Source of the DNA: Candidatus Tayloriibacteriota bacterium
GTDB taxonomy: Bacteria; Patescibacteriota; Minisyncoccia; Phycocordibacterales; PALSA-1337
DNA length: 64,000 nucleotides
NCBI GenBank assembly: GCA_943350765.1
Contig: CALRAJ010000003.1
Coordinates: 1,456 to 65,455, forward strand
Direction: 5' to 3'
Position numbers and translations under genes: made by a program. Positions within the stretch are counted from its first letter, which is position 1. The number at the start of each line of letters is the position of its first letter. Shown here piece after piece: positions 3,951-47,870 of the stretch. The notes below the pieces were generated by a model, which saw only the letters and a list, made by a program, of their open reading frames with translations, made no database searches and was not told the DNA's origin.

Positions 3951-4133
3951 TTATTGCAATTGTGGAGAATACCCCGACGGCTTGCCGCGGGGATGAATCC
4001 GCAAGAATGAAGATGAGGTCGGCGGAGCCGACACATATGCAACAAAGTTTACCCTGATGTCTCGCCTAATACCCCGCCGAGGTACTCCGAGGGAATAGCT
4101 TGCTACGGGGATAGGACGAGACTAAACTTTATT
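3951..4133 (-). repeat. 183-bp GC-rich structured repeat, copy 1 (inverted relative to 47613-47785)
   Basis: reverse complement is about 96% identical (about 8 mismatches) to 47613-47785; contains hairpins CCCCGACGGCTTGCCGCGGGG and GTCGGCGGAGCCGAC. Confidence 0.7.
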
Positions 4134-4250
4134 TTCCCTAAAACATTTTGAGTACAAAATGTTCGGGCTAGCCCGGGAGTACCCATCGCCCTAGGGCGGT
4201 CAAATTTTATTGAATTTGGTTTAGCCTCTAAAATCATCTATACTTAGACC

Positions 4251-4910
4251 ATGATCTACCTCATGTACGGCACAGACACCGACTCTGCTTTAAAAAAGGC
4301 ACAAGCGACAATTGCGTCTTTGCAAAAAAAGAAGCCAGATGCTTCATTTATTAAAGTGGAAAATAATGGACAGGAGAGCTTGTCTCTCGATGAATACATA
4401 GGTGGACAGGGTTTGTTTGAAAACAAACAACTGATATTTTTTGACCGAGTGTTGGAGAATAAAAAGGTGGCGGAGGATATACTCGACCGACTGGCGGACA
4501 TGCAAAAAACAGAAAATGTTTTTATTTTCCTTGAGGGTGCTCTGACCAAAGCTATATTAGGAAGATTTGAAAAAAGGGCGGAGAAAATAACTGAATATGC
4601 GAAGGCAAAGTCTGAAACAAAAGCTGATAAGTTTGATATGTTTTCTCTGACTAACGCACTAGGGGCGGGGGACAAGAAACAGCTCTGGATGCTCTATCTA
4701 CAAGCACAGGAGACTGGCTCGGTGCCTGAGCAAATTCACGGCCTGCTCTTTTGGAAAGTAAAAGATATGCTGGTAAAGAGAAACACTCGGGCGTATGATG
4801 AGCCAGCTCTCAAAACTATGTCATCTGAGCTCGTCTCGATGTACCACGATGCCCATCGAGGTCTCTGCGATTTCTCCATAGCACTAGAGGCATGGATATT
4901 GAAAAGATAG
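4251..4910 (+). CDS. holA: DNA polymerase III delta subunit-like (short HolA)
   Basis: 219 aa; N-terminal MIYLMYG..LFENKQLIFF pattern typical of delta subunit; weak assignment; TATACT -10 element 6 nt before the ATG. Confidence 0.5.
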   Translation: MIYLMYGTDTDSALKKAQATIASLQKKKPDASFIKVENNGQESLSLDEYIGGQGLFENKQLIFFDRVLENKKVAEDILDRLADMQKTENVFIFLEGALTKAILGRFEKRAEKITEYAKAKSETKADKFDMFSLTNALGAGDKKQLWMLYLQAQETGSVPEQIHGLLFWKVKDMLVKRNTRAYDEPALKTMSSELVSMYHDAHRGLCDFSIALEAWILKR

Positions 4911-4974
4911 TTTGAGACGGCTTGGACTAGCGGAAACCCATTTTTTCTGATATATTCTCTTTTGCTTCCTGTAT

Positions 4975-5118
4975 TTATTCTCCCTTTGAAAAGGGAGCAG
5001 ACCAGCAGGTCGAGGGATTTGAAATCTAGAAATCCATCCACGCCAGATTACTGTCGGTGAGTCGATCGTTTGTGATAGACACCTGTAGACGGTCCCTTTA
5101 GGAAAGGGAGAATAAATC
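4975..5118. mobile_element. MITE-like element family A, copy 2
   Basis: TTATTCTCCCTTTGAAAAGGGAG .. CCCTTTAGGAAAGGGAGAATAAATC inverted ends; interior is the reverse complement of the copy-1 interior. Confidence 0.55.
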
Positions 5119-5127
5119 AAAATGTAC

Positions 5128-5196
5128 GCGGCTATAGCCCCGACGCGCAAAGCGGTCGGGATCCCGACCAAAGCGTCGGGGCTCAGTCGGCAAGAA
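5128..5196 (+). repeat. partial duplicate of the tRNA-Lys 5' half with a 43-nt hairpin insertion
   Basis: GCGGCTATAGC + CCCGACGCGCAAAGCGGTCGGGATCCCGACCAAAGCGTCGGGG + CTCAGTCGG matches the tRNA-Lys 5' end GCGGCTATAGCTCAGTCGG. Confidence 0.5.
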
Positions 5197-5217
5197 TTTT
5201 GATACAATTAAATATAT

Positions 5218-5293
5218 GCGGCTATAGCTCAGTCGGTAGAGCACCTGCCTTTTAAGCAGAGGGTCGTTGGTTCGATTCCAACTAGCCGCACCA
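5218..5293 (+). tRNA. tRNA-Lys (anticodon TTT), CCA encoded
   Basis: cloverleaf: acceptor GCGGCTA/TAGCCGC, D-arm AGCTCAGTCGGTAGAGC, anticodon loop CTTTTAA, T-arm GTTGGTTCGATTCCAAC. Confidence 0.9.
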
Positions 5294-5499
5294 ATTTAAA
5301 AATCTCCCAAATTCATTTGGGAGATTTTTAAATTGGTGCGGCTAGAGCAAGCCGACTGCTCGGCTTGCGTTTGGAATCGAACAGCGGAGCCATGTTTTTC
5401 TACCAAGAAAAACGGGCGAGCTGGTGCCCAGACTTTTCCGAGCGACGGCGAGGAAAAAGTCGCGGGCGATAAATGTACCCATGGTCCAACTAGCCGCAA
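5294..5499 (+). repeat. tRNA-linked composite element, type II core (follows tRNA-Lys)
   Basis: 42-nt palindromic hairpin; inverted copy TGGTGCGGCTAG-[CUGC-loop hairpin]-TTGGAATCGAAC of the tRNA-Lys 3' end; core ..GGTGCCCAGAC-hairpin-AGTCGCGGGCGATAAATGTACCCATGGTC; direct copy CCAACTAGCCGCA. Confidence 0.6.
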
Positions 5500-6206
5500 T
5501 CACGCATAGGATCAATTGTTTTTAAAGGTCATTAGTAATTTTATTAATAATCAAGGTCGTCTTTCGCTTTTTGATCTCGTTTGTAAAATTTTATCGAAAT
5601 ATTTAGAATAGAACCCCGTATATCTTCTAGTTTACTGTTTATCGCTATAAGTAAGCAGATTGTTAATAGTGCAAATATGGTGAGTAGTGTATTCATTTTT
5701 TTGTATAGTAACATACTACTATAGAATGAGTTTAGGGTTATCCACAGGTACTATATTCATTAAGTGCTACAATTAGTATATAAGGTCATCAAATTTCATA
5801 TACCATCCAGATGGTAATTGTTTCCGACCAAAGGCGGGTCTAGCCCCTGAAATTAAGGAGCGAATTGCTCAAAACCCTTGCAAGGCTGAGAAACTGGATA
5901 GTACATGAAATTTGAGGATCTTTTTCTTGTGTTTACTTATTGTACTCTACCATGTATGGCTTTATGACTAAAGAAAAAAGTGGATAAGTATTGTATTCGA
6001 GATTGAAAAAGGGAGATTGTAAACTAAGGTATATAAAGCTAACGAAAGAGATACTCTACAATTTTAGTACCAACTGGTGCTAAAATTGACACAGTAATCA
6101 TTATGGAAATCAATGAGAACCACGATACTTTCTCTGCAACCTCTTTTTCTAGTTTTTTAATTCTTATTTCAAGGTCTTCGTAATCCATTTTATTTTTTAT
6201 AAGTTT

Positions 6207-6596
6207 TTACAACGGTAAATCAAACGCCCACGCACCTGCACCAGTAAAGAGTAGCGACAGTGCAATCACAAACAGGATCAAGTAATAATTGACACCAGCC
6301 GTGAGGAACGACCTACTCCTAATCTTCTGTACTAGTCTAAACCCGAGAATGAGCATGGCTAAAATAGAAGCAATCTGTGTGTATAGCCCGATGACAAACA
6401 AAATACCCACGAGTATTTTCACTATTGCCAGAGGTTTCTCTGTTTTCGACTTTGCCAAGCGCTCATAGCCAAAATAAATAAAGATAGTGCCGAGTAGTAA
6501 TCGGAGCAAAAAAGGTGAGAGTAAAGAAAGATACAACAGCTCTGGAAATGGATTTAACATACTAAATAGTATATCATCACCTCCATGGATACACAA
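6207..6596 (-). CDS. DoxX-like small membrane protein
   Basis: 129 aa, 4 predicted TM segments, LLRLLLG..FIYFGYEKL pattern resembles the DoxX family. Confidence 0.4.
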   Translation of the reverse strand: MCIHGGDDILFSMLNPFPELLYLSLLSPFLLRLLLGTIFIYFGYERLAKSKTEKPLAIVKILVGILFVIGLYTQIASILAMLILGFRLVQKIRSRSFLTAGVNYYLILFVIALSLLFTGAGAWAFDLPL

Positions 6597-7085
6597 AATG
6601 GCCTAAAACACGCAGAAAAAACAGCTTACATCATCCTTCATAATATCCGTAGTGTCTACAATGTCGGCTCGGCGTTCCGCACTGCCGATGCTCTCGGTAT
6701 CGACAAGATTTTCCTCACTGGCTACACACCAACACCGCTCGACCGTTTCAAGCAACTTAGAAAAGATTTGGCAAAAGTGGCACTCGGCGCCGAAAAAACC
6801 TTGGCTTGGGAATATGTCAAAAATCCAGCCGTACTCGTAGATCGCCTTAGGGGTGAGGGTGTGCAATGTGTTGCTGTCGAGCAGTTTGAAAAGTCGGTAG
6901 ACTACAAAATGGTGAAAATAGAGTATCCAACAGCGTTTCTTTTTGGTAATGAAGTGTCCGGTGTTTCAAAAAGTTTGCTTTCAAAAATGGATGTGATTGC
7001 TGAGATACCTATGGGAGGTAAAAAAGAGTCTCTTAATGTATCGGTGTCTTTGGGTGTAGCACTCTTTAGGATGCTGGGGAAGTGA
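6585..7085 (+). CDS. SpoU/TrmH-family RNA 2'-O-methyltransferase
   Basis: SPOUT motifs NVGSAFRTADALG, GNEVSGVS, IPMGGKKESLNVSVSLGVALF. Confidence 0.8.
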   Translation: MDTQNGLKHAEKTAYIILHNIRSVYNVGSAFRTADALGIDKIFLTGYTPTPLDRFKQLRKDLAKVALGAEKTLAWEYVKNPAVLVDRLRGEGVQCVAVEQFEKSVDYKMVKIEYPTAFLFGNEVSGVSKSLLSKMDVIAEIPMGGKKESLNVSVSLGVALFRMLGK

Positions 7086-7118
7086 CTCTTTGCAAGTCCT
7101 TGCGAAGAAAAAAGCTTC

Positions 7119-7210
7119 AACGGCTCAGTGGTTTTACGGCTGAGCCGTTCCAGCTAAAATATGGCTCTAGATATAGGTTTAAACGGCTAAACACTAGTGT
7201 TTAGCCGTTT
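7119..7210. repeat. two adjacent palindromic elements (AACGGCTCAGTGG..CTGAGCCGTT and AAACGGCTAAACACTAGTGTTTAGCCGTTT)
   Basis: perfect inverted repeats directly after the trmH-family gene; members of the bipartite palindrome family. Confidence 0.5.
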
Positions 7211-7264
7211 AGGTATTAGCGAAAACAGGCGATTTTGGGTATAAACCTCATGATCGTTTACTCT

Positions 7265-7441
7265 CTATTTTGTCTGCACAAAAGCGGGTTCTACGAAAGG
7301 CTTTTTTTGGTCTTTTGATCTCTCGGGAGCACCAGATAGGAACCATGCGAGACCGAGAATAATCAAAAATCCCACAAGCCATTTGAGGTCATCTACGGGG
7401 TCTGCTTTTGGTCCTGGTTTTGGTTTTTTGTCGTCTGCCAT
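7265..7441 (-). CDS. small membrane protein (58 aa, MADDKKPKPGPK..)
   Basis: ATG-initiated ORF with a lysine-rich N-terminus and one TM helix; below the size cutoff of the ORF track. Confidence 0.3.
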   Translation of the reverse strand: MADDKKPKPGPKADPVDDLKWLVGFLIILGLAWFLSGAPERSKDQKKPFVEPAFVQTK

Positions 7442-7497
7442 GGAATAGAATAGTTAAAAGTACGAAGTCGTAAGTCAAAATTTCTAATTCGTTTAAA

Positions 7498-8430
7498 TTA
7501 AGTATAACACTGTTGGTGTGTATCGCAAAAGTGTGCGCTTCGACCGCCTATTTTGAGTTTGGTGATTTTGCCCAGACATTTTTTCTTGGCACAGCTTTCA
7601 TGGGTTTTTTGGTAAGCTTGATGATGATGCTGGAAACTACCCTTGGTGCCGAGTGGGGTGCGGTAGTCAGAGGTGGAATCACCACCAAAATCAATACCCT
7701 TTTTGAGGAGGAGCTTGGTCGAAGCGAACATTTTTTGCAATTGCTTATCGGGAATCCTTGATACTATCGACAGTGGATGAATATCAGAATCCCAGAGGAT
7801 TTCGTCTGAGTAAATATTACCTATACCTGAGATGACCATCGGCTCGATCAAAACCTGCTTGATTTTACCTTTGGGTCTGGTCATCAGGCGTATTTTAAAT
7901 TTATCAAAGTCGAAATCTTTTTCTAGCGGTTCCGGACCTATATCAGAAAGGTGGTGAGATTTTTGAGCGGTAGCGGTAGGAAGTAGGGTGATTTTGGCAA
8001 ATTTGCGGACATCGGAGAGGGCAAGGTGGCGACCGTTTTTAAACGAGATGATAAAATGAACAAATCGGCTGTACGGGTCTTTTAACTCCTCTGGCTCCAT
8101 TGCTTCCCAAACTGATTTCGACTCAGTACTTTTGACTTTTGACTTCAGGTATTTCCCGTACAGTAGTTGCCCCGTCATTTTCATGTGGACGAGGATCGTC
8201 TGGTCGTTGTCTAGGTTGATGAGTATATTTTTACCTCGCCTCGTGACATTTTTTATTTTTGCGTCGGTCACAGCAACTCGAAACTTTTGGAAAAACTTCG
8301 GGTCTTTAATAGTGTCTTTTCCTAGATGAGTCTTTCCACCATAGTCTGTCCAGACATCAGTAATCTGCTCGCCAGTGATCAGCTGGTCTAGCATCGTCGC
8401 TGTTGTGTGGACTTCGGGCAATTCGGGCAT
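7498..8430 (-). CDS. mutM: formamidopyrimidine-DNA glycosylase
   Basis: N-terminal MPELPEVHT (catalytic P2/E3); C-terminal CxxC..GGR..CxxC zinc finger. Confidence 0.85.
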   Translation of the reverse strand: MPELPEVHTTATMLDQLITGEQITDVWTDYGGKTHLGKDTIKDPKFFQKFRVAVTDAKIKNVTRRGKNILINLDNDQTILVHMKMTGQLLYGKYLKSKVKSTESKSVWEAMEPEELKDPYSRFVHFIISFKNGRHLALSDVRKFAKITLLPTATAQKSHHLSDIGPEPLEKDFDFDKFKIRLMTRPKGKIKQVLIEPMVISGIGNIYSDEILWDSDIHPLSIVSRIPDKQLQKMFASTKLLLKKGIDFGGDSTSDYRTPLGTKGSFQHHHQAYQKTHESCAKKKCLGKITKLKIGGRSAHFCDTHQQCYT

Positions 8431-8436
8431 GGATGT

Positions 8437-9003
8437 TTATTTTCCGAGCGATTTAAGAGCCGATTTTACACGGGCGCTAGTAGAGGTGATCTCTTTGGGT
8501 ACCTGCTTGAGTGCCTCGCGGGCTTCGTGAGGATTGTAGCCGAGGGATTTGAGGGCTTCGAGTGCATCTACCTCGTCCCTTAGGGTGATGTCAGTCTCGC
8601 CTTCATCGATAAACTTACCTCGAAGCTCGAGGACTATTTTGTCTGCTATTTTCCTACCGATACCTGAGACTTTGGTGAGGTGTGAAGTGTCGCCAGAGGA
8701 TACGGCTTTTCTGAGGGCGGGGAGGCTCGAGACATTGAGTACGCCGAGAGCGGTTTTCGGACCAATACCAGAAATAGATATGAGTAATTCAAAAAAGGAT
8801 AGCTCATCTTTGCCTTGGAAGCCGTAGAGTGTCATGGAGTCTTCGCGAACAGCTAGATGTGTCCAGAGCGAGATAGTTTTGTCTAAGGTAGAGCTTTCGA
8901 GTAGAGGGAGAGTGGTAAAGATTTTGTAGCCGACACCTTGGACATCGAGTACTAGGTACTTGTCGTCTTTGTGGATTACGGTACCCGTGAGGTAGGAGAT
9001 CAT
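8437..9003 (-). CDS. ruvA: Holliday junction DNA helicase RuvA
   Basis: MISYLTGTV..LVLDVQGVGYKI N-terminus; HhH and C-terminal domain III pattern. Confidence 0.9.
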   Translation of the reverse strand: MISYLTGTVIHKDDKYLVLDVQGVGYKIFTTLPLLESSTLDKTISLWTHLAVREDSMTLYGFQGKDELSFFELLISISGIGPKTALGVLNVSSLPALRKAVSSGDTSHLTKVSGIGRKIADKIVLELRGKFIDEGETDITLRDEVDALEALKSLGYNPHEAREALKQVPKEITSTSARVKSALKSLGK

Positions 9004-9657: not shown

Positions 9658-9667
9658 GGTAGGTAAA

Positions 9668-9809
9668 CCCCAAATTATGGAATACCGTCGCGGGCGTATC
9701 TTTTTGAAAGACTTCGGAAGCGGGTAGCTGAGACTTGAGAGATTTCTTACCAAAGAAATACTCGTGCTTTCAAAAAGATACGCTAAGAAAGGTGTTTCGT
9801 AATTTGGGG
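9668..9809. mobile_element. MITE-like element family B copy with TAAA target-site duplication
   Basis: TIRs CCCCAAATTATGGAATACC / GGTGTTTCGTAATTTGGGG; TAAA on both flanks; internal hairpin GCGTATCTTTTTGAAAG..CTTTCAAAAAGATACGC enclosing the conserved core GCGGGTAGCTGAGACTTGAGAGATTTCT. Confidence 0.6.
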
Positions 9810-9882
9810 TAAAGAAATATTAGCCAAACTAAAATTATCTAAAACACTAGCAGGAAACGCGATTTACCTTATCACACAAACA

Positions 9883-10565: not shown

Positions 10566-10860
10566 GCAGAGGAACGAAGTGAATAAGGAATGGGTGAGTT
10601 CGAACTGGAAGGGGGTCGGGGAAAATGGCGTTTCCCCGTGGAGGAAAACAACGAGTACTCGAGTGTTAGAAACCGTGGGTTTCTAAAACGCAGGCTACTG
10701 CCGAGCAGTGAGGTTCTCACCCCATCCGCCTTCGGTCCGCCGGAGCAGACCTACGGCGTGACGCAGTCCGCCAGTGGGTTTGCATAGGCGACCTTCGCCA
10801 TACTGAAGCATGGCTACGGCGTAAAAAAGTCCGCAGTAATTATGCGTCGACTTTCGCTAG
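10566..10860 (+). repeat. tRNA-linked composite element, type I core (follows tRNA-Ser)
   Basis: inverted T-arm copy GGAATGGGTGAGTTCGAAC 10586-10604; core GGGGGTCGGGGAAAATGGCGTTTCCCCGTGGAGGAAAACAACGAGTACTCGAGTGTTAGAAACCGTGGGTTTCTAAA; direct copy CTCACCCCATCCGCC 10716-10730; tail CCGCCTTCGGTCCGC..GCGTGACGCAGTCCGC also found at 60160-60240. Confidence 0.6.
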
Positions 10861-13321: not shown

Positions 13322-13666
13322 ATGTTCGACTATTTTTCCAGTCTAGGATACTATATAAATATGCCCATCACTTCTTCACTGGTTGTTTCGTTTGCGATAG
13401 GGATTATTGTCGGAACACTTTTTGTCTACAAGAAAAGTGGGTCGTACGGAAAGAATAGACAGCACAGAGAAAAGGAAAAAAGAAAAGCATTAATAATGGA
13501 TTTATTCGCTACTCGCTTTGAGGTGCGAAATAATGATGTTGAGCGCATGTTTGCCGTGTCTGATGCGACGGCTACGAACTATTTGAGTGAGCTAGAGGCT
13601 GAGGGAAAGGTAAGGCAGGTGGGGAGTCGGGGGAGGTTTGTGACTTACGAGAAAATCAAAGGCTAA
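13322..13666 (+). CDS. hypothetical small membrane protein with a basic C-terminal region
   Basis: 114 aa, one TM helix, K/R-rich linker. Confidence 0.3.
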   Translation: MFDYFSSLGYYINMPITSSLVVSFAIGIIVGTLFVYKKSGSYGKNRQHREKEKRKALIMDLFATRFEVRNNDVERMFAVSDATATNYLSELEAEGKVRQVGSRGRFVTYEKIKG

Positions 13667-13725
13667 ACAGGGGTGTTTAGCCTTTGAGCGTGGCTACACA
13701 GAGCCATTTTGGGTTTTTGGCTAAA

Positions 13726-18663: not shown

Positions 18664-19027
18664 AATAAACCTGTAAGGGTTTTTTGTGCAACCTCGGTTG
18701 GAATCGAACCGGAAAGGGGTCGGGGAACGGGAGTTCCCCGTGGAGGAAAACAACGAGTACTCGAGTGTTAGAAACCGTGGGTTTCTAAAGAGCCCGACAC
18801 ACGGAGGGCGAGTGAGATAGCGAAGCGCCCAACCGAGGGCACAAAAAAATGCGGAGCACTTTTTGTGCCCTCGAGCAGGCAAACTGCTTTGCCTGCGGGT
18901 CGGAATCGAACAGCGGAGTCATGTTTTTATACCAAGAAAAACAGGCGAGCTGGTGCCCAGACCAAAGTTTTTGACGAAAAACTTTGAGTCGCGGGCGATA
19001 AATGTACTCATGGTCCAACCGAGGGTT
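18664..19027 (+). repeat. tRNA-linked composite elements: type I core then type II core in tandem (follow tRNA-Arg-TCT)
   Basis: inverted copy CAACCTCGGTTGGAATCGAACC 18689-18710; type I core 18715-18792; direct copy CCCAACCGAGGGCACA 18828-18843; inverted TGTGCCCTCG-[CUGC hairpin]-GGTCGGAATCGAAC 18863-18910; type II core ..GGTGCCCAGACC-hairpin-AGTCGCGGGCGATAAATGTACTCATGGTC; direct copy CAACCGAGGG 19015-19026. Confidence 0.6.
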
Positions 19028-28444: not shown

Positions 28445-28495
28445 AAACGGCTAAACGCTAGCGTTTAGCCGTTTAGCATGGCTCTATATAGCCAT
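28445..28495. repeat. bipartite palindromic element (AAACGGCTAAACGCTAGCGTTTAGCCGTTT plus CATGGCTCTATATAGCCAT)
   Basis: perfect palindromes immediately after the rluA-family gene. Confidence 0.55.
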
Positions 28496-30408: not shown

Positions 30409-30537
30409 TGGCATGGTTAGAGAGAATCGGACGACGGAGCGGGGTACCCACATAACAATGTGGGTCGCGAGTCGGTGCCCAGACCGAGGCGAGTGGCGAC
30501 GAGCCTTGAGTCGCGGGAGATTCTCTCTAGCCACCCC
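30409..30537 (+). repeat. tRNA-linked composite element, type II core (follows tRNA-His)
   Basis: terminator hairpin GACAAACGCGGAGCGTTTGTC; inverted copy TGGCATGGTTAGAGAGAATCGGAC; GACGGAG; hairpin ACCCACATAACAATGTGGGT; GTCGGTGCCCAGACC; hairpin CGAGGCGAGTGGCGACGAGCCTTG; AGTCGCGGG; direct copy AGATTCTCTCTAGCCACCCC. Confidence 0.6.
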
Positions 30538-36270: not shown

Positions 36271-36871
36271 ATGCTTTCAAAAAAAACGCACAAGGTGTCC
36301 ATTATGTCAGTCATTGAATACAGTAAAAAATGGTAGTGGAGATCATGGCCAAAGATACAGATGTAATGATTGTAACAAGAGGTTTAGGTTGAAAGATTAC
36401 AAGAAAGAAAAAGAATCTGAATATATATGGAACGAATTTGTGTTTGCAAAGCAAACACTCAGAGAGTTGTCAGAAATATTTTCATACACTAAAAAACAAC
36501 TCCAAAGAATCTTTGATGGTATACAAATCACACAAAAGATTCACACCCCACGAGCACTACACCTCGTAGTTGATGCCACCTACTTTGGAATGAAGGAAAC
36601 TAGGCTTTGGGGAGTACTAGTTTTTCGAGATCAAACCAACAAAGAGAATCTATGGTGGCAATTCATAGATGAAGAAAGAATACACTACTACAGAGAAGGT
36701 AGAGACTACCTTCTCTCTCTGGGGTATACAATACTATCTGTCACCTGTGATGGATTCAGTGGCTTACCTGAGCTATTTTCACCCATTCCTGTACAGTTCT
36801 GTCACTTTCACCAAGCCCAGATCGTGAGAAGGTATACAACACTTAATCCGAGTTTTTTGCTCAGTTGCTGA
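36271..36871 (+). pseudogene. IS1-family transposase remnant (InsA-like zinc finger plus InsB-like DDE region), frameshifted at an A8 tract and C-terminally truncated
   Basis: with one A removed from the A8 tract (36279-36286) the ORF reads MLSKKRTRCPLCQSLNTVKNGSGDHGQRYRCNDCNKRF, matching the IS1 InsA CPxC..VRNG..QRYxCxxC finger; downstream VVDATYFG and TCDGFSGLP align with IS1 InsB D residues; the ORF stops where the third catalytic residue is expected, and the GC-rich segment begins there. Confidence 0.6.
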
Positions 36872-37545
36872 CTACCGTCAAACCTGGCCAGATGGATCAT
36901 AAACGGATGCAGGCTGCGATTAAGGACCCCCAGCTCACCGAGCGCATGTATGCGTTCGTTAATGGTTACGAGGTTGCGCCACTGCAGGTGGTTATCCCTC
37001 CAGTCGTGGAGCTGGCAACTTTTATCCCCCTCCACCTCTCGATCCCGCTCGCCACTCACAAGGCCCGCTCGATGTCGGAGCTTTTCCGCAATCGTGGCAA
37101 GGTCATCTTCTACTACCGCGATGGCGACCTCGACGGTTGGTTCACCGCGAACTCCCCACAGTGCCCAGCTGGCACCGCCTCCCTCGTCAAAACCCCCAGG
37201 GCAATGACGTTCCGGCAGATGGCGCAGTCGGCCACTGGACTCCAGTCTGAGTCCCTCGCCGACCTCTCCCGTGCCATTGTCACCAAAGGCCTCGACATCG
37301 TCCCCACCCAATGGGACGACGCTATCGGCGCCACTCAGAACGGCACGGATCTTCTCCTCGTCAACGGCTATGCCAACTTCGCTTTTACGAAGACAGACAA
37401 GAAGCTCAAAGATGAGAATCAACAGGTAGTCGTGCTCTGCGCCCGCCGCGACGACGACGGCCGGTGGGGCGCCGGCGTCTGCGGGCTCGACAACGACGAC
37501 GAGTGGAACGCCGACTACAGGCTTCTCCTCCGCAACTCGCCCTAG
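36865..37545 (+). CDS. DGR target (variable) protein; C-terminal 35 codons encoded by VR
   Basis: GC-rich (about 60%) ORF; its 3' 106 bp is the A-mutagenised homologue of the TR; C-terminus ..LCARRDDDGRWGAGVCGLDNDDEWNADYRLLLRNSP; start uncertain (TTG 36865 or ATG 36892). Confidence 0.7.
   Translation: MLTTVKPGQMDHKRMQAAIKDPQLTERMYAFVNGYEVAPLQVVIPPVVELATFIPLHLSIPLATHKARSMSELFRNRGKVIFYYRDGDLDGWFTANSPQCPAGTASLVKTPRAMTFRQMAQSATGLQSESLADLSRAIVTKGLDIVPTQWDDAIGATQNGTDLLLVNGYANFAFTKTDKKLKDENQQVVVLCARRDDDGRWGAGVCGLDNDDEWNADYRLLLRNSP
37433..37538 (+). repeat. DGR variable repeat (VR)
   Basis: 106-bp ungapped alignment to TR 37788-37893 with 16 mismatches, 14 at TR adenines (11 A>G, 1 A>C, 2 A>T); identical 3' IMH-like GGCTTCTCCTCCGCAACTC, then palindrome GCCCTAGGGC. 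Confidence 0.85.
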
Positions 37546-37571
37546 GGCACTTTTGCCCTTTGACACTTCTT

Positions 37572-37603
37572 CCCCCAGCACTACGGTGCTGGGGGATTTT
37601 TTT
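37572..37603 (+). terminator. rho-independent terminator after the DGR target gene
   Basis: CCCCCAGCACTACGGTGCTGGGGG hairpin plus T7. Confidence 0.65.
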
Positions 37604-37787
37604 ATAAAATTTGATATACTGCCATTTAGGATTTGCTGACATACTCGGCGTAAGCTTGGTATGGCGAGTCCTGCAACATTCAAAAAAGAAATAGTTGGTG
37701 CCTCACTCTGGTGAGAAAAAGTCTCAAAATACTATTCAGCCCCAAGAGAATTCAAAGGGTGTTGTAATAGATGGAGCGAGGTACAAA

Positions 37788-37893
37788 TGCTCTACGCCAA
37801 CCGCAACGACGACGGCCAGTGGAATGCGAACGTCAACAGGCTCGACAACGACAACGAGTGGAACGCCGACAACAGGCTTCTCCTCCGCAACTC
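37788..37893 (+). repeat. DGR template repeat (TR)
   Basis: AAC/AAT-rich in the VR reading frame (MLYANRNDDGQWNANVNRLDNDNEWNADNRLLLRN); followed by hairpin CTCCCGCTTACTGCGGGAG plus T-run. Confidence 0.85.
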
Positions 37894-37908
37894 TTGCTTT
37901 TCTCCCGC

Positions 37909-38253
37909 TTACTGCGGGAGTTTTTGTTCTATGGAATAGATCCAGCCATGAAGCATCTTTCCGGCAGCGACCAATTTTTCATTTAGTAAGATAAACTTCT
38001 TGTCCTCGAATATGTTCATCTCCCAGCCAACAGATAAGAAGAATTTGATCAGATCCAAGTGCTCCTGAGCAGCCTTTATTAGAAGTATTTTTTGTTCGCC
38101 ACTACAATAGGTGGCCTGGTAAATTGACCTCAATGCCTCGGTGAAATAATCTTCAATTTTTGAAGCAATGCCAAATCGTACTGGTTTCGGTAAATTTTCG
38201 CTGTATGTAAACCATAGAGAATATGTTTCTTTCAGGTGTTGTAGCACTGGCAA
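37909..38253 (-). CDS. avd: Avd-like accessory variability determinant (four-helix-bundle, 23S rRNA IVS protein family)
   Basis: 114 aa, TTG start; LPKPVRFGIASKIEDYF.. and LLIKAAQEHLDLIKFFLSVGW helices match the Avd/IVS four-helix-bundle pattern; minus strand, divergent from the RT. Confidence 0.65.
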   Translation of the reverse strand: MPVLQHLKETYSLWFTYSENLPKPVRFGIASKIEDYFTEALRSIYQATYCSGEQKILLIKAAQEHLDLIKFFLSVGWEMNIFEDKKFILLNEKLVAAGKMLHGWIYSIEQKLPQ

Positions 38254-38261
38254 AATCGTGC

Positions 38262-38271
38262 GGGGGGGGGG
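38262..38271. repeat. G10 homopolymeric tract in the avd/RT divergent intergenic spacer
   Basis: CGGGGGGGGGGT, 14 nt upstream of the RT ATG, 9 nt from the avd start. Confidence 0.8.
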
Positions 38272-38284
38272 TAGACTTTGTAGT

Positions 38285-39319
38285 ATGGCTCGGATTCAAC
38301 TGATTCATACCTATCAGCATATCATTTCTGTTGAAAATTTGCTTTCAGCGTTGAGAGAATTTACCAAGGGCAAAAAGCAGAAAAAAGATGTCCAACAATT
38401 CTCACTTCGTCTGATGGATAATATTTTGAAACTCCATCGAGATCTTGCGGATAGAACTTATGTACATGGAGATTATCACGCTTTCAATATTTCCGATCCA
38501 AAGCCACGCAATATTCACAAAGCACTGGTGCGAGACAGACTGGTACATCACGCTATATACAGAGTGTTGTGCCCCTTTTTTGACCGTACTTTCATCAGTG
38601 ATTCGTATTCGTGTCGTCTGTATAAAGGCACACATCGAGCACTGAATCGGTTTAGGGATTTTGGACAAAAAGTTTCAAAAAATAACACACGCACCTGTTG
38701 GGTTTTGAAATGTGATGTGAGGAAGTTTTTTGCTTCTATTGACCACGGCGTCTTGTTCGCTATTCTAGAGCAGTATATTCCAGATAAAGATATCCTATGG
38801 CTACTCACTCGAGTGATCGATAGTTTCCATTCTACCCGTTTTGGTGTCGGACTTCCTCTCGGCAATCTCACATCACAGCTTCTAGTGAATATTTATATGA
38901 ACGAGTTTGACCAGTATATGAAGCATCGGCTTAAGGCCAAACACTATATTCGATATGCTGACGATTTTGTTATTTTGAGTAATGATAAAAAACGGCTCGA
39001 AAATATTTTGATAGAAATTAGTGACTTTTTGCAAGTAAAGCTTCGCCTGAATCTTCATCCAGACAAAGTGTTCATAAAAACATTTGCATCAGGTGTAGAT
39101 TTCCTTGGCTGGGTACACTTTTCTGACCATAGGGTACTGAGGACTTCCACCAAGAAAAGAATGTTTAAACGATTGGCTGAGGGAGAGGTATCGGAGACGA
39201 CCATCCTTTCGTATTTAGGCATGCTGAGTCATGGTAATGGGATGGGGTTGCAAGAGATGATTACTGGGCTGTCAGGATTGAATTTGGCTGGCGGAGGTAT
39301 GAGTGATAGTAAAACTTAA
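38285..39319 (+). CDS. DGR reverse transcriptase
   Basis: RT motifs 1-2 PKPRNIHKALVRDRLVHHAIYRVL, A WVLKCDVRKFFASIDH, B' GLPLGNLTSQLLVNIYMNEFD (SQ in place of group II SP, the DGR hallmark), C YIRYADDFVIL, D LRLNLHPDK, E GVDFLGW; start taken at ATG 38285 (MARIQL) rather than the ORF-track start 38168. Confidence 0.85.
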   Translation: MARIQLIHTYQHIISVENLLSALREFTKGKKQKKDVQQFSLRLMDNILKLHRDLADRTYVHGDYHAFNISDPKPRNIHKALVRDRLVHHAIYRVLCPFFDRTFISDSYSCRLYKGTHRALNRFRDFGQKVSKNNTRTCWVLKCDVRKFFASIDHGVLFAILEQYIPDKDILWLLTRVIDSFHSTRFGVGLPLGNLTSQLLVNIYMNEFDQYMKHRLKAKHYIRYADDFVILSNDKKRLENILIEISDFLQVKLRLNLHPDKVFIKTFASGVDFLGWVHFSDHRVLRTSTKKRMFKRLAEGEVSETTILSYLGMLSHGNGMGLQEMITGLSGLNLAGGGMSDSKT

Positions 39320-42219: not shown

Positions 42220-43471
42220 TATGAATTTTAAATCAATTTCAGTCGGTATATTTTTGGCGGTTCGTCAGATTCGTCGAGCCAACATTTGGACCAATATCCT
42301 GATTGTTTTTGTGATGACACTGACATTTCTAAATCTCGTGGTGGTTGGAGGTATCTTGGTCGGTCTTATTGAAGCATCAGTGGAGTCAAACCGCACACAT
42401 TATTCAGGGGATATCCTCATATCCAATCTACTCGAAAAGACCTATATTGAGGGTAGTACGAAAATGGTAAAGTTTATAGAGGGGTTGCCAGAAGTATCTG
42501 CTGTAACCGCTCGGTATGTGGAAAGTGGGCGACTGGAGTCTGGGTACAAGGAACGCACAAATCAAGGAGATATTTTAGATAATGCTAGTGGTTTGGTTAC
42601 GGGTATTGATCCAGTAAAGGAAAATAATGTTACAGATATTGCGAGTAAAGTAATAGAAGGTGAGTACCTAGATACATCAGACGAAGACCAGATTTTGATA
42701 GGAGGTAATTTGCTTTTCAAGTATTCACCTATCGATTCTCCAGGACTAAGAAATTTAAAAACAGCAGATATTGGCTCACGAGTTCGTTTGGTAATAAATG
42801 GCAATACAAAGGAGGTTACAATAAAAGGTATTATAAAAAGCAAGGTTGGCGAGCTAGATCAGCGGATTTTTATAGTCGATAGGGTACTCAGGGGAATGAT
42901 TGGTCGTACAGACTATAATGTCGATGAGATTGCTATAAAACTCAAAGATCCTTTGTATGTTGGTCAGGTTAAGCAGGTTTTGGAGGACGAGGGTTTTGGT
43001 CGGTTGGCAAAAATCAGGACATGGAATGAGGCACAGCCAAAGTTTCTGATAGATATAAAAGATGCGTTTAGTCTGCTCGGAGATATCATCGGCTCGGTGG
43101 GCCTAGTGGTAGCTTCGATCACGATATTTATCGTGATTTTTGTAAACGCTATTACTCGTCGAAAATATATCGGTATTTTGAAAGGGGTGGGGATAGACTC
43201 CTTTGCGATAGAGGTTGCCTATATTATTCAATCACTTTTTTATGCAGTGGCTGGGACAGCTATTGGGATTGTTGTTCTGTATTTTGTTTTGGTACCATTT
43301 ATTGACGCCCATCCGATCAACTTTCCTTTTAGTGATGGGATATTGGTCGCAACTGTGTCAGGGACACTTTGGCGAGCATTGGCACTTCTTGTTGCAACTG
43401 TTATTGCTGGGTATATTCCAGCCAAGATTGTTAGTAGGCAAAATACCCTCGATGCTATTTTAGGTCGTTAA
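42188..43471 (+). CDS. ABC transporter permease, FtsX/MacB-type
   Basis: N-terminal TM, large periplasmic domain, C-terminal FtsX-like 3-TM bundle. Confidence 0.8.
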   Translation: MKRWYLLLKISMNFKSISVGIFLAVRQIRRANIWTNILIVFVMTLTFLNLVVVGGILVGLIEASVESNRTHYSGDILISNLLEKTYIEGSTKMVKFIEGLPEVSAVTARYVESGRLESGYKERTNQGDILDNASGLVTGIDPVKENNVTDIASKVIEGEYLDTSDEDQILIGGNLLFKYSPIDSPGLRNLKTADIGSRVRLVINGNTKEVTIKGIIKSKVGELDQRIFIVDRVLRGMIGRTDYNVDEIAIKLKDPLYVGQVKQVLEDEGFGRLAKIRTWNEAQPKFLIDIKDAFSLLGDIIGSVGLVVASITIFIVIFVNAITRRKYIGILKGVGIDSFAIEVAYIIQSLFYAVAGTAIGIVVLYFVLVPFIDAHPINFPFSDGILVATVSGTLWRALALLVATVIAGYIPAKIVSRQNTLDAILGR

Positions 43472-43480
43472 GATAATCAC

Positions 43481-44164
43481 ATGACATATATTATTTCTGC
43501 AAAAAAGCTAGTCAAATCATTTCATAACGGGGTTACCGAGCAAACGGTGCTTCGAGGAGTGTCGCTAGACATTTCACTCGGTGAATTTGTGATTATTGTT
43601 GGTCGTTCTGGTGCCGGTAAATCAACTCTGCTTTATCAGCTAGGACTTCTCGACCATTCGACATCTGGGACACTTCGTATCGGGGAAGTGGATACAGAAA
43701 AGCTGTCTAGTCGGGAAAGGACGGATTTTCGTCTGACTGAGCTAGGCTACATTTTTCAAGATTATGCTTTGGTGCCAGAGTTGACTGCCTCAGAAAATAT
43801 CATGATACCGCTTTTGATGAGAGGTTTTAGTAAAAGAGAGGCGTTAGTTTTAGCAAAGGATGCATTAGAAAAGGTTGGGATTGCTGATAAGTGGAAAAAT
43901 CTACCAAGCCAGCTTTCGGGTGGGGAACAACAGCGAGTATCGGTAGCTAGGGCGATAGTTGGCAAGCCAAAGATTATTTTTGCCGATGAGCCGACAGCCA
44001 ATCTAGACAGTGAAAGCTCGGCTCTAGTGGTCAATCTATTTCGTACTTTACACAAAGAGGGGCAGACCCTGGTCATGGTGACTCATGAGGAAGAGTACAC
44101 ACAGTATGCTGACCGAGTAATAACACTCCGTGATGGGGAAATTGTGGATATAAAGAGTAGGTAG
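43481..44164 (+). CDS. ABC transporter ATP-binding protein (MacB/LolD-like)
   Basis: Walker A GRSGAGKST, Q-loop, signature LSGGEQQR, Walker B IIFADEPT, H-loop. Confidence 0.9.
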   Translation: MTYIISAKKLVKSFHNGVTEQTVLRGVSLDISLGEFVIIVGRSGAGKSTLLYQLGLLDHSTSGTLRIGEVDTEKLSSRERTDFRLTELGYIFQDYALVPELTASENIMIPLLMRGFSKREALVLAKDALEKVGIADKWKNLPSQLSGGEQQRVSVARAIVGKPKIIFADEPTANLDSESSALVVNLFRTLHKEGQTLVMVTHEEEYTQYADRVITLRDGEIVDIKSR

Positions 44165-44181
44165 GACAGTAGGATAAAATA

Positions 44182-44423
44182 CCCCGAATTACGAAATACC
44201 GTCTACATGTGTCGATCATAAACGATCGACCCTTTCTTGGCATATCTTTTTGAAGCCTATCGGTTAGGGATAGGCATCTGTAGACGAAGCCCTCGTATTT
44301 TCTTGCTAGAAAATCTCTCAAGTCTCAGCTACCCTGCTTGCGCCGTCTACAGGGACACATCATCTAAACGATGTGAAAGTCTTTCAAAAAGATACGCCTG
44401 CGACAGTATTTCGTAATTCGGGG
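44182..44423. mobile_element. MITE-like element family B (composite) with 7-bp TAAAATA target-site duplication
   Basis: TIRs CCCCGAATTACGAAATACCGTC / GACAGTATTTCGTAATTCGGGG; TAAAATA at 44175-44181 and 44424-44430; core TCTTGCTAGAAAATCTCTCAAGTCTCAGCTACCC plus a segment (TATCGGTTAGGGATAGGCATCTGTAGACG) shared with family A. Confidence 0.65.
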
Positions 44424-44482
44424 TAAAATAAAAAAGCTGTCGGGTGAACGACAGCTCGGGACAATCTTTGTATGGGTGATAA

Positions 44483-45679
44483 TTATGCTTTCTTTCGATC
44501 ACCCTTTGGGATTTGCCTACTACCAACTGGACGAACTAACGGCATTCTTTCAAGTTTGCGTACTTCGTTCGCGAGTTTTCTTAGGGTAATTTCCTGAATC
44601 TGGCGGACCCGCTCTCGGGTGATACCAAACTTTAAGCCGACCTCCTCGAGGGTTTTCTCGTCGCCACCGTCGAGACCGTACCGATAGCGGATAATAGTCG
44701 CTTCTCGGGGGACTAAGGTCAAAACTATTTTCTGCACCATGGCACAATTGATTTTTTTCTCGAGCTCATCAGAAGGATCCTCGGCAGTCTCATCGGCGAC
44801 CACATCAATGAGTCTATTGGAATCCTCGTCGTTTCCCAGACTGCCATTTAGAGGGGCTGGGCTAGCTACTCCATGAGCTAGTCGCAGTTGAGCGATTTTC
44901 TCTGCCGTTGTCCCAAGCTCATCTGCCACTTCGGCATCCGCAGGCTCGCGTCCCAGCAACTCCTGCAACTTCGCAGTCGTTTTACGGACATGAAAGAGCT
45001 TGTCTACGATATGTACGGGTAGGCGGATGGTCTTGGACTGGTTGGCAAGCGCCCGCTTGATCGCCTGCTTGATCCACCACGCCGCGTAGGTGGAAAGCTT
45101 GGCGCCCTTACTGGGATCAAAGCGTTCGACTGCCTTCATGAGACCGATGTTACCCTCGCTGACGAGGTCGAGTAGAGGCACGCCGTAGTTTTCGTAGTCG
45201 CGGGCGATTTTCACCACCAGCCGAAGATTCGCTTTGATCATGTGTTCCCGTGCCTCCTTGTCGCCCCGCTTGATGCGTGCTGCTAGGTCGATTTCGTCTT
45301 GTGGCGTCAAGAGTGGGGTTTCCGCGATTTCGCGTAGATACAGCTGGAAGCTTGTACCGCCGTCGTAAGCACCTCGCACAATGACAGGTTCAGAGGGCAA
45401 TACCCCCTCGCGTGGAAACTTTAGGTATGATCGTTCAGGTACGACATGCCCAACTGCAAGAGTTTTTTCCTTAGGCACTTTGACTTTCGGAACCATCTTT
45501 TTCTTCAGATTAGGCTTTTTGTACTTTTTGGGTACCTTTTTTGCCGTTACCACCAACTTTACTGGAGATGCTTTACGGTGAGCGTGTCGTGGTCGGACGA
45601 CACTTCCTTTACGACCAACACACAACACCACTGAATTTGTGAGATGGTGTCTACCGTTTCCGACAATTTCTTGCTCCAT
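44483..45679 (-). CDS. rpoD: RNA polymerase sigma-70 (primary sigma factor) with K/P-rich N-terminal extension
   Basis: region 2 DLVSEGNIGLMKAVERFDPSKGAKLSTYAAWWIKQAI, region 3, region 4 LTPREATIIRYRYGL..TLEEVGLKFGITRERVRQIE. Confidence 0.9.
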   Translation of the reverse strand: MEQEIVGNGRHHLTNSVVLCVGRKGSVVRPRHAHRKASPVKLVVTAKKVPKKYKKPNLKKKMVPKVKVPKEKTLAVGHVVPERSYLKFPREGVLPSEPVIVRGAYDGGTSFQLYLREIAETPLLTPQDEIDLAARIKRGDKEAREHMIKANLRLVVKIARDYENYGVPLLDLVSEGNIGLMKAVERFDPSKGAKLSTYAAWWIKQAIKRALANQSKTIRLPVHIVDKLFHVRKTTAKLQELLGREPADAEVADELGTTAEKIAQLRLAHGVASPAPLNGSLGNDEDSNRLIDVVADETAEDPSDELEKKINCAMVQKIVLTLVPREATIIRYRYGLDGGDEKTLEEVGLKFGITRERVRQIQEITLRKLANEVRKLERMPLVRPVGSRQIPKGDRKKA

Positions 45680-45857
45680 GATACCTCCTGTGGTTTGTTG
45701 ATATTCTGCTTACTTGATTTTCAAGTACACTTACCTTGTCTAGGTAGGTGTAGGGACTAAAACCACCTAAAACACTACAGTATATTTATATTTTGTCAAC
45801 ATAATGTTATTTGACATTACTTACTATATTTGATATAATAGAAACAATAAAAATATC

Positions 45858-46757
45858 ATGGAGCACAAGGTCTTAAAACTACTAATTGCAACCACAACAC
45901 AGTCTGCCGAATACGAGCTCCTCGACAGTGGAGAGGGGGAAAAATTTGAGCGATTTGGCTCGGTTATATTATCTCGTCCCGACCCACAGGCACTCTGGCG
46001 TAAAACAATGACTGAAAAGGAGTGGGCTATTGCTGACGCTTACTTTTCTCGTGATGGCAAGGCTACCTCATGGACAATTAGAAAACCTATTCCTGACCGC
46101 TGGAAAATCGCTTTTGCCGGACTCTCGTTCTGGATCAAGCCCACAGCTTTCAAGCATACAGGTCTTTTTCCTGAGCAGGCAAGTAACTGGGATTGGATGA
46201 GGGCGGTGATTATTTCAACCAAGAATGCTGAGCCAAGTCGAGAGCTAAATGTACTCAATCTTTTTGGCTACACAGGTGGTGCCTCACTCGCTTGTGCGCA
46301 GGTGGGAGCAAAAGTTTGCCATGTAGATGGTTCAAAATCAGCCATTACTTGGGCGAGGGAAAACGCCGAAGCCTCTGGTCTCACTGATGCACCGATACGG
46401 TGGATTCTCGATGATGCAAAAGTGTTTGTTGAGAAGGAGATAAAACGCGGTAAAAAGTACGACGCCATAATCATGGACCCACCAGCTTTTGGTCATGGTC
46501 CAAACAAAGAGCTTTGGAAAATAGAGGATGATTTTCTCGAGTTGCTCGATTTGTGTAGTAAAATCCTTTCGGATAATCTGATTTTCTTTTTGGTAAATGG
46601 TTATGCGTCTGGCTACTCGGCTATCTCTTATAAAAATGCACTGGCACATACCATAGAAAAGTACGGTGGATCGACCGAGGTAGGTGAGCTGGCCATAGCC
46701 GAATCAAAAAGTCAGCGCCTCTTGCCTTGTGGGATTTTTGCACGGTGGAAGAGATAG
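45858..46757 (+). CDS. class I SAM-dependent RNA methyltransferase (RlmI/RlmK-like)
   Basis: SAM-binding LNLFGYTGGASL.., DAIIMDPPAF catalytic motif. Confidence 0.7.
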   Translation: MEHKVLKLLIATTTQSAEYELLDSGEGEKFERFGSVILSRPDPQALWRKTMTEKEWAIADAYFSRDGKATSWTIRKPIPDRWKIAFAGLSFWIKPTAFKHTGLFPEQASNWDWMRAVIISTKNAEPSRELNVLNLFGYTGGASLACAQVGAKVCHVDGSKSAITWARENAEASGLTDAPIRWILDDAKVFVEKEIKRGKKYDAIIMDPPAFGHGPNKELWKIEDDFLELLDLCSKILSDNLIFFLVNGYASGYSAISYKNALAHTIEKYGGSTEVGELAIAESKSQRLLPCGIFARWKR

Positions 46758-46778
46758 TTTTTCTGTATCTATAGCTAT

Positions 46779-47444
46779 ATGTTACCTGTAATCCTATACG
46801 AAGATAACCATTTGATAGTAGTCAACAAACCAGCTGGTGTTTTGGTACAAGGGGATATTTCGACTGATGATTGTCTTCTTGAGCAGGTTAAAAGCCATAT
46901 TAAAACACGCGATAATAAGCCCGGAAATGTTTTTCTGGGTTTGGTACATCGGCATGATCGCAATGTGTCTGGGGTACTACTTTTTGCTAAGACTAGCAAA
47001 GGTGCATCGCGACTGGGGGAGCAATTTCGGGAACATACTGTAGAAAAGATATACCACGCTTGGGTTACGGGCGTGCCTATAAAAAGATCAGAAACTCTGG
47101 TGAACTTTTTAATTAAAAACGAAAATGACAACAAAACCTCAGTATACGAGTCAGAAATTCGCGGGTCGCAATACGCCGAGCTTCGATATGAGGTGGTAGA
47201 TAAAATGGGAGATTTTTCGTTACTTAAAATAAAGCTTAAAACAGGTCGTCCACACCAGATTCGTGCACAGCTTGCCTATATCGGACACCCAATATTGGGT
47301 GATGGCAAGTACGGTTCAAAGACTTCTCTATCCGAGAGGAGGATTGCACTTACTGCCACTTCGCTTTCGTTTATAACCGCAACAGGTGAGGAAAAAAGGA
47401 TTATTTCTGTGCCAGCGCTAGATTTACCTGCGGGACTAAACTAG
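46779..47444 (+). CDS. RluA-family pseudouridine synthase
   Basis: LGLVHRHDRNVSGVLLFAKT catalytic motif. Confidence 0.85.
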   Translation: MLPVILYEDNHLIVVNKPAGVLVQGDISTDDCLLEQVKSHIKTRDNKPGNVFLGLVHRHDRNVSGVLLFAKTSKGASRLGEQFREHTVEKIYHAWVTGVPIKRSETLVNFLIKNENDNKTSVYESEIRGSQYAELRYEVVDKMGDFSLLKIKLKTGRPHQIRAQLAYIGHPILGDGKYGSKTSLSERRIALTATSLSFITATGEEKRIISVPALDLPAGLN

Positions 47445-47505
47445 CGTTCTTGGCTAAAATATTCAAAAATCTTGCTACCAAAATACGGCTCTAAGTCTAG
47501 GTTTC

Positions 47506-47533
47506 AAAGGCTAAACGCTAGCGTTTAGCCTTT
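47506..47533. repeat. palindromic element AAAGGCTAAACGCTAGCGTTTAGCCTTT
   Basis: perfect palindrome, member of the bipartite palindrome family. Confidence 0.5.
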
Positions 47534-47612
47534 GAAATATTTGAGTATTTTCTGGGTGTAATTTTTGACCTAGATGCGACCTTTTCCGCGGCGTACTCGC
47601 CGCGGGTTGTTA

Positions 47613-47870
47613 AATAAAGTTTAGCCTCGTCCTATCCCCGTAGCAAGCTATTCCCTCGGATTACCTCGGCGGGGTATTAGGCGAGGCATCAGGGTAAACT
47701 TTGTTGCAGAAGTGTCGGCTCCGCCGACTTCATCTTCATTCTTGCGGATTCATCCCCGCGGCAAGCCGTCGGGGTATTCTCCACAATTGCAATAAAGTTT
47801 AGTCTCGTCCTATTCCAGCGACAAGCTGTCGGGGTTATTATCCACAATTACAATAAAAAAACCACCCCTA
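47613..47870 (+). repeat. 183-bp structured repeat, copy 2 (47613-47785), plus internally deleted tandem partial copy (47781-47870)
   Basis: about 96% identical to the reverse complement of 3951-4133; the partial copy retains the 5' AATAAAGTTTAGTCTCGTCCTAT and 3' GTCGGGGTTATTATCCACAATTACAATAAA ends. Confidence 0.7.

Follow-up and report, generated by a model that had tools for sequence, protein, structure and literature searches.

The 64,000-nt stretch analysed here (the window) comes from contig CALRAJ010000003.1 of a Candidatus Tayloriibacteriota bacterium and carries a small GC-rich, hairpin-rich element in two intergenic regions, one in the gene order polA-holA-SpoU-Fpg-RuvA and the other in the order methyltransferase-RluA-FolD-SIMPL-SecE-NusG. 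Full-length copy 1 lies in the first region at 3950..4133 on the plus strand. It measures 184 nt including the abutting hexamer TTTATT at 3950-3955, and its body, 3956-4133, finishes in a TTTATT of its own at 4128-4133. Full-length copy 2 is found in the second region at 47613..47796 on the minus strand, and a short-form copy of 67 nt (47791..47857, minus strand) stands in tandem with it, on its upstream side. The element is best read as a previously undescribed dispersed family of small non-coding hairpin-rich mobile repeats in Paceibacteria/Taylorbacteria-like bacteria of the Candidate Phyla Radiation (CPR).

A repeat search of the window gives the inverted arms as 3950-4134 (+) and 47612-47796 (-), 185 nt each, 43,477 nt apart and 97% complementary. 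Compared directly, the two full copies are 96.8% identical and differ at six positions; the first-pass annotation, which had described a near-identical inverted repeat 43.5 kb apart, was right about the pair and counted about eight mismatches. The longest perfect stretch common to both is 67 nt. The GC content of the element is 51%, against 41.6% for the window, and its single-strand folding compared with shuffled sequences gives z = -4.4 for the plus strand and -4.2 for the minus strand. With a covariance model (CM) of the family, copy 1 scores 216.5 bits and copy 2 217.6 bits.

In a BLAST search against the family the closest relative of each window copy is the other window copy, which indicates, on sequence similarity, a recent move inside the source genome, with one copy now on each strand. 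The copies are present in every strain-level contig of the window organism. The 10 kb on each side of the window hold neither a further copy nor a transposase. The short copy joins the first ~45 nt of the element to its last ~22 nt, so that it consists of the left end, one hybrid hairpin and the right end, and it has a single TTTATT (47791-47796) in common with copy 2. It had been described as an internally deleted tandem duplicate. The copy does exist, but by direct comparison it is only ~85% identical to the full copies, which argues that it is an older, separate family member at the same site and not a recent duplicate of copy 2.

The exact last 21 nt of the right end, AGGACGAGRCTAAACTTTATT, served as the search key for the family. 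The pattern matched at five loci in four Patescibacteria metagenome-assembled genomes (MAGs) and at 18 metagenome loci, while viral contigs gave 0 matches with three patterns. From BLAST and inspection, elements occupy about 17 distinct intergenic flanks in Patescibacteria (Paceibacteria/Taylorbacteria) MAGs and metagenomes. No two sites of the family are syntenic. One MAG, FW305_bin.8, carries copies on two contigs (L007 and L008), and the CM search added one degraded left-end copy after a terminator (L016:5170-5284). Where full length, copies outside the window have 79-92% identity to those inside it, and the length of the element ranges from 94 to 341 nt, typically ~184. Between genomes the identity of the element (92%) exceeds that of the proteins (77% for RluA).

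The most constant parts are the left 16 nt (GYAATTGYGGAGAATA; in copy 1 GCAATTGTGGAGAATA) and the right ~23 nt. The left end reads TTTATT, then GTAATTGYGGAGAA..., the right end ...GGCTAAACTTTATT, and all copies finish in ...CTAAACTTTATT. No open reading frame (ORF) is conserved within the element across copies; a small internal ORF (MKMKSAEPT...) was rejected by inspection, as its length and frame differ between copies. There is also no autonomous long version among the right-end matches, each of which has a left end at most 341 nt away or none, with no ORF between.

Both sites occupied in the window are empty in relatives. The spacing between polA and holA is 1,105 nt in the window and 23 nt in L028, whose HolA is 83% identical. 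In L027 (HolA 92% identical) the upstream gene and a terminator, CCAGTC...GACTGG followed by T6, lead directly into the holA leader, without the element and without the ~90 nt to its right. At the RluA-FolD site, L031 and L032 have the small minus-strand ORF, the terminator and then TTTTTTATT|TAAAC, with no element. L031 and the element-bearing contigs L007 and L008 come from one MAG, so that in one genome other sites are occupied and this one is empty. Empty sites hold a single TTTATT. Reconstructed, the empty junctions would read ...TTTTTTTATT then TTCCC... and ...TTTTTTTATT then TAACAAC..., and a circular or excised joint would read ...CTAAACTTTATT|GYAATTG.... The element is multi-copy and non-syntenic, is absent at the orthologous sites of relatives and has derivatives that keep only its ends (described below). 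This is how a mobile repeat behaves, and the element very probably represents a mobile non-coding repeat family.

A simple segmental duplication of an intergenic region within this genome, or its gene conversion, without mobility and with the pair mainly a substrate for inversion of the 43.5 kb, would fit the 96.8% identity, the 67-nt perfect stretch and the inverted orientation of the copies. We consider it highly improbable, as the homology between the two loci stops exactly at the element boundaries, the element stands at about 17 unrelated sites in other genomes, the synteny across both copies is that of relatives without the element and the GC skew is uniform across the interval. That the repeat could mediate an inversion, as proposed in the first-pass annotation, is possible in principle given the 67 perfect nucleotides, but there is no sign that it has done so. 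The gene orders at copy 1 and copy 2 are collinear with those of element-less relatives, the GC skew is positive throughout the interval with no flip, and none of the assembled contigs recovered has an alternative junction, all showing the same arrangement. The shared gene order, the unflipped skew and the lack of an alternative contig argue that the assembled orientation is the ancestral one.

Each full copy starts directly after the terminator hairpin and T-run of a co-oriented small ORF. Before copy 1, after ORF 3664-3912, the sequence is GGCCAG...CTGG T7 ATT; this terminator-like hairpin and T7 run (3924..3952, +, -8.6 kcal/mol) merges into the TTTATT of copy 1. Before the tandem copies, the terminator hairpin and T run of a 70-aa ORF (47868-48080, -) lie at 47858..47886 (-, -15.1 kcal/mol), read CCGCCCTAA...TTAGGGGTGG T7 ATT and directly precede the TTTATT of the tandem copies. 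The left end adjoins TTTATT in 17 of the 18 copies. Very often this hexamer forms the end of a T-run belonging to a terminator, with T at positions -7 and -8 in 11/18 copies and, farther upstream, G/C-rich positions that are terminator stems. Right flanks vary among copies, with T or A as the first base. TTTATT occurs 120 times in the window and TTTTTATT 36 times; the two sites that carry the element are both tails of terminators, and one of them has been hit two times. Gene-orientation contexts of all kinds occur among the copies, and the stop codon of several convergent genes is the TAA inside the right-hand TTTATT. On the element strand we found no sigma-70-like promoter before either window copy and none inside.

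The sequences next to copy 1 have features of their own. ORF 3664-3912 (82 aa, no Pfam hit) seems to correspond to the 3' portion of a 193-aa gene, intact in the relative L027 (2352-2933), and gene calls on the identical contig L002 split this gene into 47 + 77 aa; the gene upstream of copy 1 (3500-3912) is possibly a pseudogene with a frameshift. On the right side of copy 1, the ~90 nt at 4134-4226 contain more small hairpins and TTTATTGAATTTGGTTTAGCC (4206-4226), which looks like a left end joined to the octamer of the right end in inverted orientation. This segment may be the relic of another insertion.

The fold was derived from an alignment of 13 full-length or nearly full-length copies and has two domains. 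Domain 1 is a three-way junction in which helix P0 closes an arm (P1, internal loop, hairpin P2) and a hairpin, P3. Domain 2 is a long arm made of P4, a variable bulge of 7-8 nt, P5, an internal loop and hairpin P6 with a variable tip. In copy 1 the left-end module (3956..4004, +) begins with the conserved 16-nt end; P1 pairs 3960-3966 with 3998-4004, AATA occupies 3968-3971, and P2 (3972-3992) has one extrahelical base. P3 and the 3' strand of P0 follow at 4018..4042 (+), where P3 is 4018-4032 and 4038-4042 pairs with 3954-3958 to form P0. The right-end module (4044..4133, +) contains P4 (4044-4051 with 4123-4130), P5 (4060-4066 with 4114-4121), a second AATA at 4068-4071, P6 at 4072-4110 and the terminal TTTATT.

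Standard pairs are found in 96.6% of 590 cells, and seven pairs are changed on both sides. None of 500 shuffles (0/500) reaches the observed pairing or covariation, and slid partners pair at 36-44%. Because the search pattern fixed the right strands of P4 and P5, the constancy of these strands is not evidence; their free 5' partners are. Among the compensatory changes, P0 has C-G in the window copies and U-A elsewhere, and a P5 pair, C-G in copy 2 where copy 1 has U-A, accounts for one of the six copy differences. RNAalifold on the copies and their homologues, a comparison suggested in the first-pass annotation, independently recovers the same helices. The chain of GC-rich hairpins seen there is therefore conserved, with compensatory changes once the homologues are aligned.

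The two end hairpins, P2 and P6, repeat each other almost exactly in direct orientation; each has one extrahelical base and is flanked by AATA (5') and AT (3'). Counting hairpin bases and flanks, 20/26 positions are identical in the window, 23/26 in L018, 21/26 in L009 and 19/26 in L020. Two known motifs were considered and set aside. A K-turn or a box C/D motif was considered for the GAAUA/AUGAA internal loop, but on inspection the G-A pairs are wrongly placed for it. The CUGAUG...CUAAAC of the window copies recalls a hammerhead, which needs an invariant CUGAUGA and GAAA core around stem II. The CUGAUG stretch is not conserved, and no other part of the right arm varies as much (CCTAGATG, CCCTAACG, CCATGGTG, CCCCGTTG...), and Rfam gives no hammerhead match in the element region.

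Many derivatives keep the ends and change what lies between them. Short forms with the left end, one hairpin and the right end are found in L011, L014, L017, L019 and as the window partial; in L005 the interior differs and the ends are kept, and L025 is a solo right end after gyrB. Hairpin tips carry insertions of 20-150 nt in L004, L009, L017 and L020, the longest, ~150 nt, in L004. One subfamily (L018, L020, L011, L014, L017, L019, L005) has an extra hairpin, GCCTGTCTGCGTGC..GCACAGGCAGGC, nested at the tip of P6; it is twice nested in L017 and present as two units in L005. We also considered GCCTGTCTGCGTGC... as an independent repeat and rejected this, since in the fetched loci the hairpin is found only inside P6 of this element.

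A conserved fold of this size could belong to a stand-alone structured small RNA (sRNA) gene, 6S-like or for another trans-acting regulator, present in several copies per genome, and the first-pass annotation had compared the repeat with 6S RNA or a similar regulator. In favour of such a gene family are the compensatory changes in the fold and an identity between genomes above that of the proteins. The strand comparison points the same way: the given strand folds better in consensus than its complement (-51.9 against -43.7 kcal/mol), and G-U cells exceed A-C cells, 20 to 7. However, counted as pair positions the G-U excess is only 12 to 7 and not significant; the fold asymmetry slightly favours the given strand and is suggestive, not decisive. 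The genomic setting also speaks against an sRNA gene. The copies have no promoter-like site and start right after the terminator of another gene, they are never syntenic and are absent from the orthologous sites of close relatives, and their derivatives (L005, L011, L014, L017, L019 and the window partial) keep the ends while losing or replacing interior helices. In addition, hairpin tips tolerate insertions of up to ~150 nt.

No Rfam family, 6S included, matches the element. At the gathering score the window contains eight tRNAs only, and 3800-4300 searched at E<=10 gives noise of at most 16 bits. Like 6S RNA (RF00013 and relatives), the element has ~185 nt, is GC-rich relative to its genome and is highly structured. 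It differs in forming a three-way junction and an arm instead of a single rod with a central bubble, in lacking any covariance-model match even at E<=10, and in being multi-copy, non-syntenic, insertion-polymorphic and without a promoter. The comparison with 6S was therefore dropped, and we regard a family of sRNA genes as unlikely.

How, then, might a gene-less element of this kind move? In IS200/IS605 elements a transposon-adjacent motif (TAM; TTTAT in ISGst2) lies beside the left end, and a transposon-encoded motif (TEM) that closely resembles it lies at the boundary of the right end; the subterminal hairpins are bound by the Y1 transposase, while a DNA guide in each end pairs with the motif (Meers et al., PMC10055086). 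Palindrome-associated transposable elements (PATEs) are gene-less IS200/IS605 derivatives with the same layout (PMC10055086). Overall, the explanation that fits best is that the element is a non-autonomous mobile element with IS200/IS605-like (PATE-like) ends, and we hold this to be probable, with considerable doubt remaining. The IS200/IS605-like mechanism itself is a more tentative proposal, for which we have somewhat more doubt than trust.

Under this mechanism the element would probably be moved in trans as single-stranded DNA (ssDNA) by a 'peel-and-paste' transposase of the HUH/Y1 (IS200/IS605) type. The flanking TTTATT would be the TAM and the terminal TTTATT the TEM. The AATA 5' of each hairpin could act as the DNA guide, since it is the exact complement of TATT. 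An inserted copy would regenerate the landing site, as the right-end motif is the same as the target motif, and the tandem pair at 47.6-47.9 kb could then have arisen because each insertion creates a new target. Slippage between the two near-identical end hairpins would yield the recurrent short forms, which need not themselves be mobile. The fold would be kept because copies that proliferate depend on it, in the form of ssDNA ends or of read-through RNA.

The repeated TTTATT can also be explained by a classical miniature inverted-repeat transposable element (MITE) moved by cut-and-paste by a DDE transposase, in which case it would be a 6-bp target-site duplication. It stands on both sides of every copy and once at empty sites, the tandem copies have one TTTATT in common, and the window holds other MITE-like families with terminal inverted repeats (TIRs). 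The element itself has none; its first ~27 nt match the reverse complement of its last ~27 nt at about 10 positions, and the repeat search found no TIR. Moreover, the right-hand TTTATT belongs to the constant CTAAACTTTATT and to helix P4 and so behaves as element sequence, and a DDE transposase would have to be unusually strict in its target to leave the same 6 bp at every copy. A DDE-moved MITE is in our view very unlikely.

Several points weigh against IS200/IS605-like movement as well. Neither a Y1 nor any other transposase turned up in the ~300 kb of sequence covered by tblastn and Pfam lists; tblastn with the IS608 and IS200 TnpA gave nothing better than E=1.9 over this ~300 kb. No autonomous element with these ends was recovered. 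IS608 and ISDra2 have a strong bias for the lagging-strand template, whereas the orientation of the copies relative to flank GC skew, taken as a proxy for replication, is positive for 9, negative for 10 and neutral for one, i.e. without bias, and copies 1 and 2 occupy different strands within a single, uniformly skewed replichore. With TAM and TEM identical, a 6-bp target duplication or a 6-bp recombination core looks the same as no duplication, and the constancy of the right-end 21-mer is ascertained by its use as the search key, not independently observed. AATA precedes both hairpins in most copies; where it deviates (AAAT and ACTA in L006-L008), TTTATT is unchanged, and since the motif never varies, no covariation of guide and motif can show. 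Finally, P0, P1, P4 and P5 pair the ends with the interior, and the fold exceeds what the known IS200/IS605 ends need.

This surplus of structure brings in another possibility, namely that the fold of the gene-less mobile element is a functional RNA for its own movement, similar to a bridge (seek) RNA or an omega-RNA, which would be made by read-through of the terminator behind which the element lands and would have an unlinked protein as partner, be it a recombinase, a nuclease or an RNA-binding factor. Nearly the whole length of the element takes part in the fold, which shows covariation, and AATA in both loops is complementary to the TATT core common to the target and the ends. In addition, two modules of stem, internal loop and hairpin plus a third hairpin in ~180 nt loosely recall the layout of the IS110 bridge RNA. 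However, the internal loops have only 4-5 nt per side, and the complementarity to target and donor is only 4 nt. The variable regions are no closer to their own flanks (mean longest shared word 5.8-6.4) than to the flanks of other copies (6.0-6.7), and no DEDD/IS110, TnpB or IscB gene is present in any fetched locus. Furthermore, as TEM and TAM are identical, an omega-RNA made from the right end would turn cleavage against the locus it comes from (reasoned from PMC10055086). We judge such an element-borne RNA quite unlikely; if true, it would be a new kind of RNA-dependent mini-element in CPR bacteria.

The interval between the two full copies had been described as ordinary housekeeping genes without a mobile element. 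It is mostly housekeeping, but it also contains a diversity-generating retroelement (DGR) at 37.4-39.3 kb, or 36865-39319 with the whole ORF that bears the variable repeat. This variable repeat (37424-37538) lies at the 3' end of ORF 36865-37545, the template repeat is located at 37779-37893, and a bAvd-like ORF (37909-38253, minus strand) and a reverse transcriptase (PF00078; 38168-39319) follow. The mismatches are mostly template A to G, C or T in the variable copy.

The window is in general rich in intergenic repeat families. A palindrome, GGCTAAAC-N6-GTTTAGCC, occurs in five copies (7185-7206, 13661-13682, 28449-28470, 47509-47530, 62981-63001), at least four of the five just past a gene end, and looks like a shared terminator-like or REP-like hairpin. 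The octamer GRCTAAAC, which also forms the right end of the studied element, is observed 16 times in the window against 4 expected. Another family, GGTGCCCAGAC-[variable hairpin]-GTCGCGGGCGA, is found at 5398-5480, 18927-19009, 30467-30521, 60062-60144 and 61638-61720; four of the five copies are located 80-260 nt downstream of tRNA genes (Lys, Arg, His, Ser), and none matches Rfam. A separate 56-nt pair, 100% identical (10632-10687 and 18734-18789), also follows tRNA genes. The MITE-like families include a palindromic one of ~145 nt (9667-9810, 44287-44424, 51026-51141, 53061-53204) with true inverted arms (44 nt, 56 nt apart), the four copies of which are 78-93% identical.

CPR/Patescibacteria genomes are ~1 Mb in size. 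The element, a recently active repeat that Paceibacteria lineages share at an identity above that of their proteins, is a marker of horizontal exchange or of ongoing transposition in these episymbionts. The element is also a likely cause of assembly breaks and a potential substrate for rearrangement. For annotation, GC-rich structured intergenic islands in these genomes should be checked for copy number and insertion polymorphism before they are called sRNAs. If the IS200/IS605-like reading is true, it points to a trans-acting Y1 transposase in these genomes.

Compared with known systems, the element is neither 6S RNA nor a hammerhead, an IS110 bridge RNA or a MITE of the TIR type, and it has the following likenesses. 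With the bridge (seek) RNA of IS110/IS1111 it has in common a structured non-coding unit of ~180 nt in a mobile element without TIRs, two stem/internal-loop modules, and the same short core at the target and at both element ends. It differs in its loops, which are too small (4-5 nt), in a target set by only ~6-8 nt, and in having neither copy-specific complementarity to its flanks nor a linked DEDD recombinase gene in any locus. The pneumococcal BOX elements, the enterobacterial repetitive intergenic consensus (ERIC) and the repetitive extragenic palindromes with their mosaic elements (REP/BIME) are, like this element, intergenic, often 3' of genes, non-coding and strongly structured by prediction, as well as modular, with internal modules that vary in number and length, and without an identified transposase. 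Sequence and architecture differ from those of BOX (A-Bn-C) and of the REP doublets (REPINs); REPINs are inverted doublets linked to RAYT genes, whereas the two hairpins here are direct repeats, and the strict TTTATT landing site sets the element apart from BOX, ERIC and REP alike.

The comparison with PATEs is the closest, with several differences. No Y1 TnpA was found in the ~300 kb covered, and the copies show no orientation bias by the replication-strand proxy. In the element TAM and TEM are identical rather than differing at one or two positions. Its hosts are Patescibacteria, in which our literature search found no MITE-, PATE- or IS605-type repeats described. Its interior is an elaborate three-way junction with a long arm that pairs with the end sequences. 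Like PATEs, it is small, non-coding and multi-copy and lacks TIRs, its left end adjoins a T-rich motif (TTTATT here, TTTAT in ISGst2), and its right end finishes in a motif like the TAM, which is identical here and partly ascertained by the search. Similar imperfect subterminal hairpins with an extrahelical base are present at both ends, and in most copies 4 nt directly 5' of each hairpin are complementary to the cleavage motif and would correspond to the guide of PATEs.

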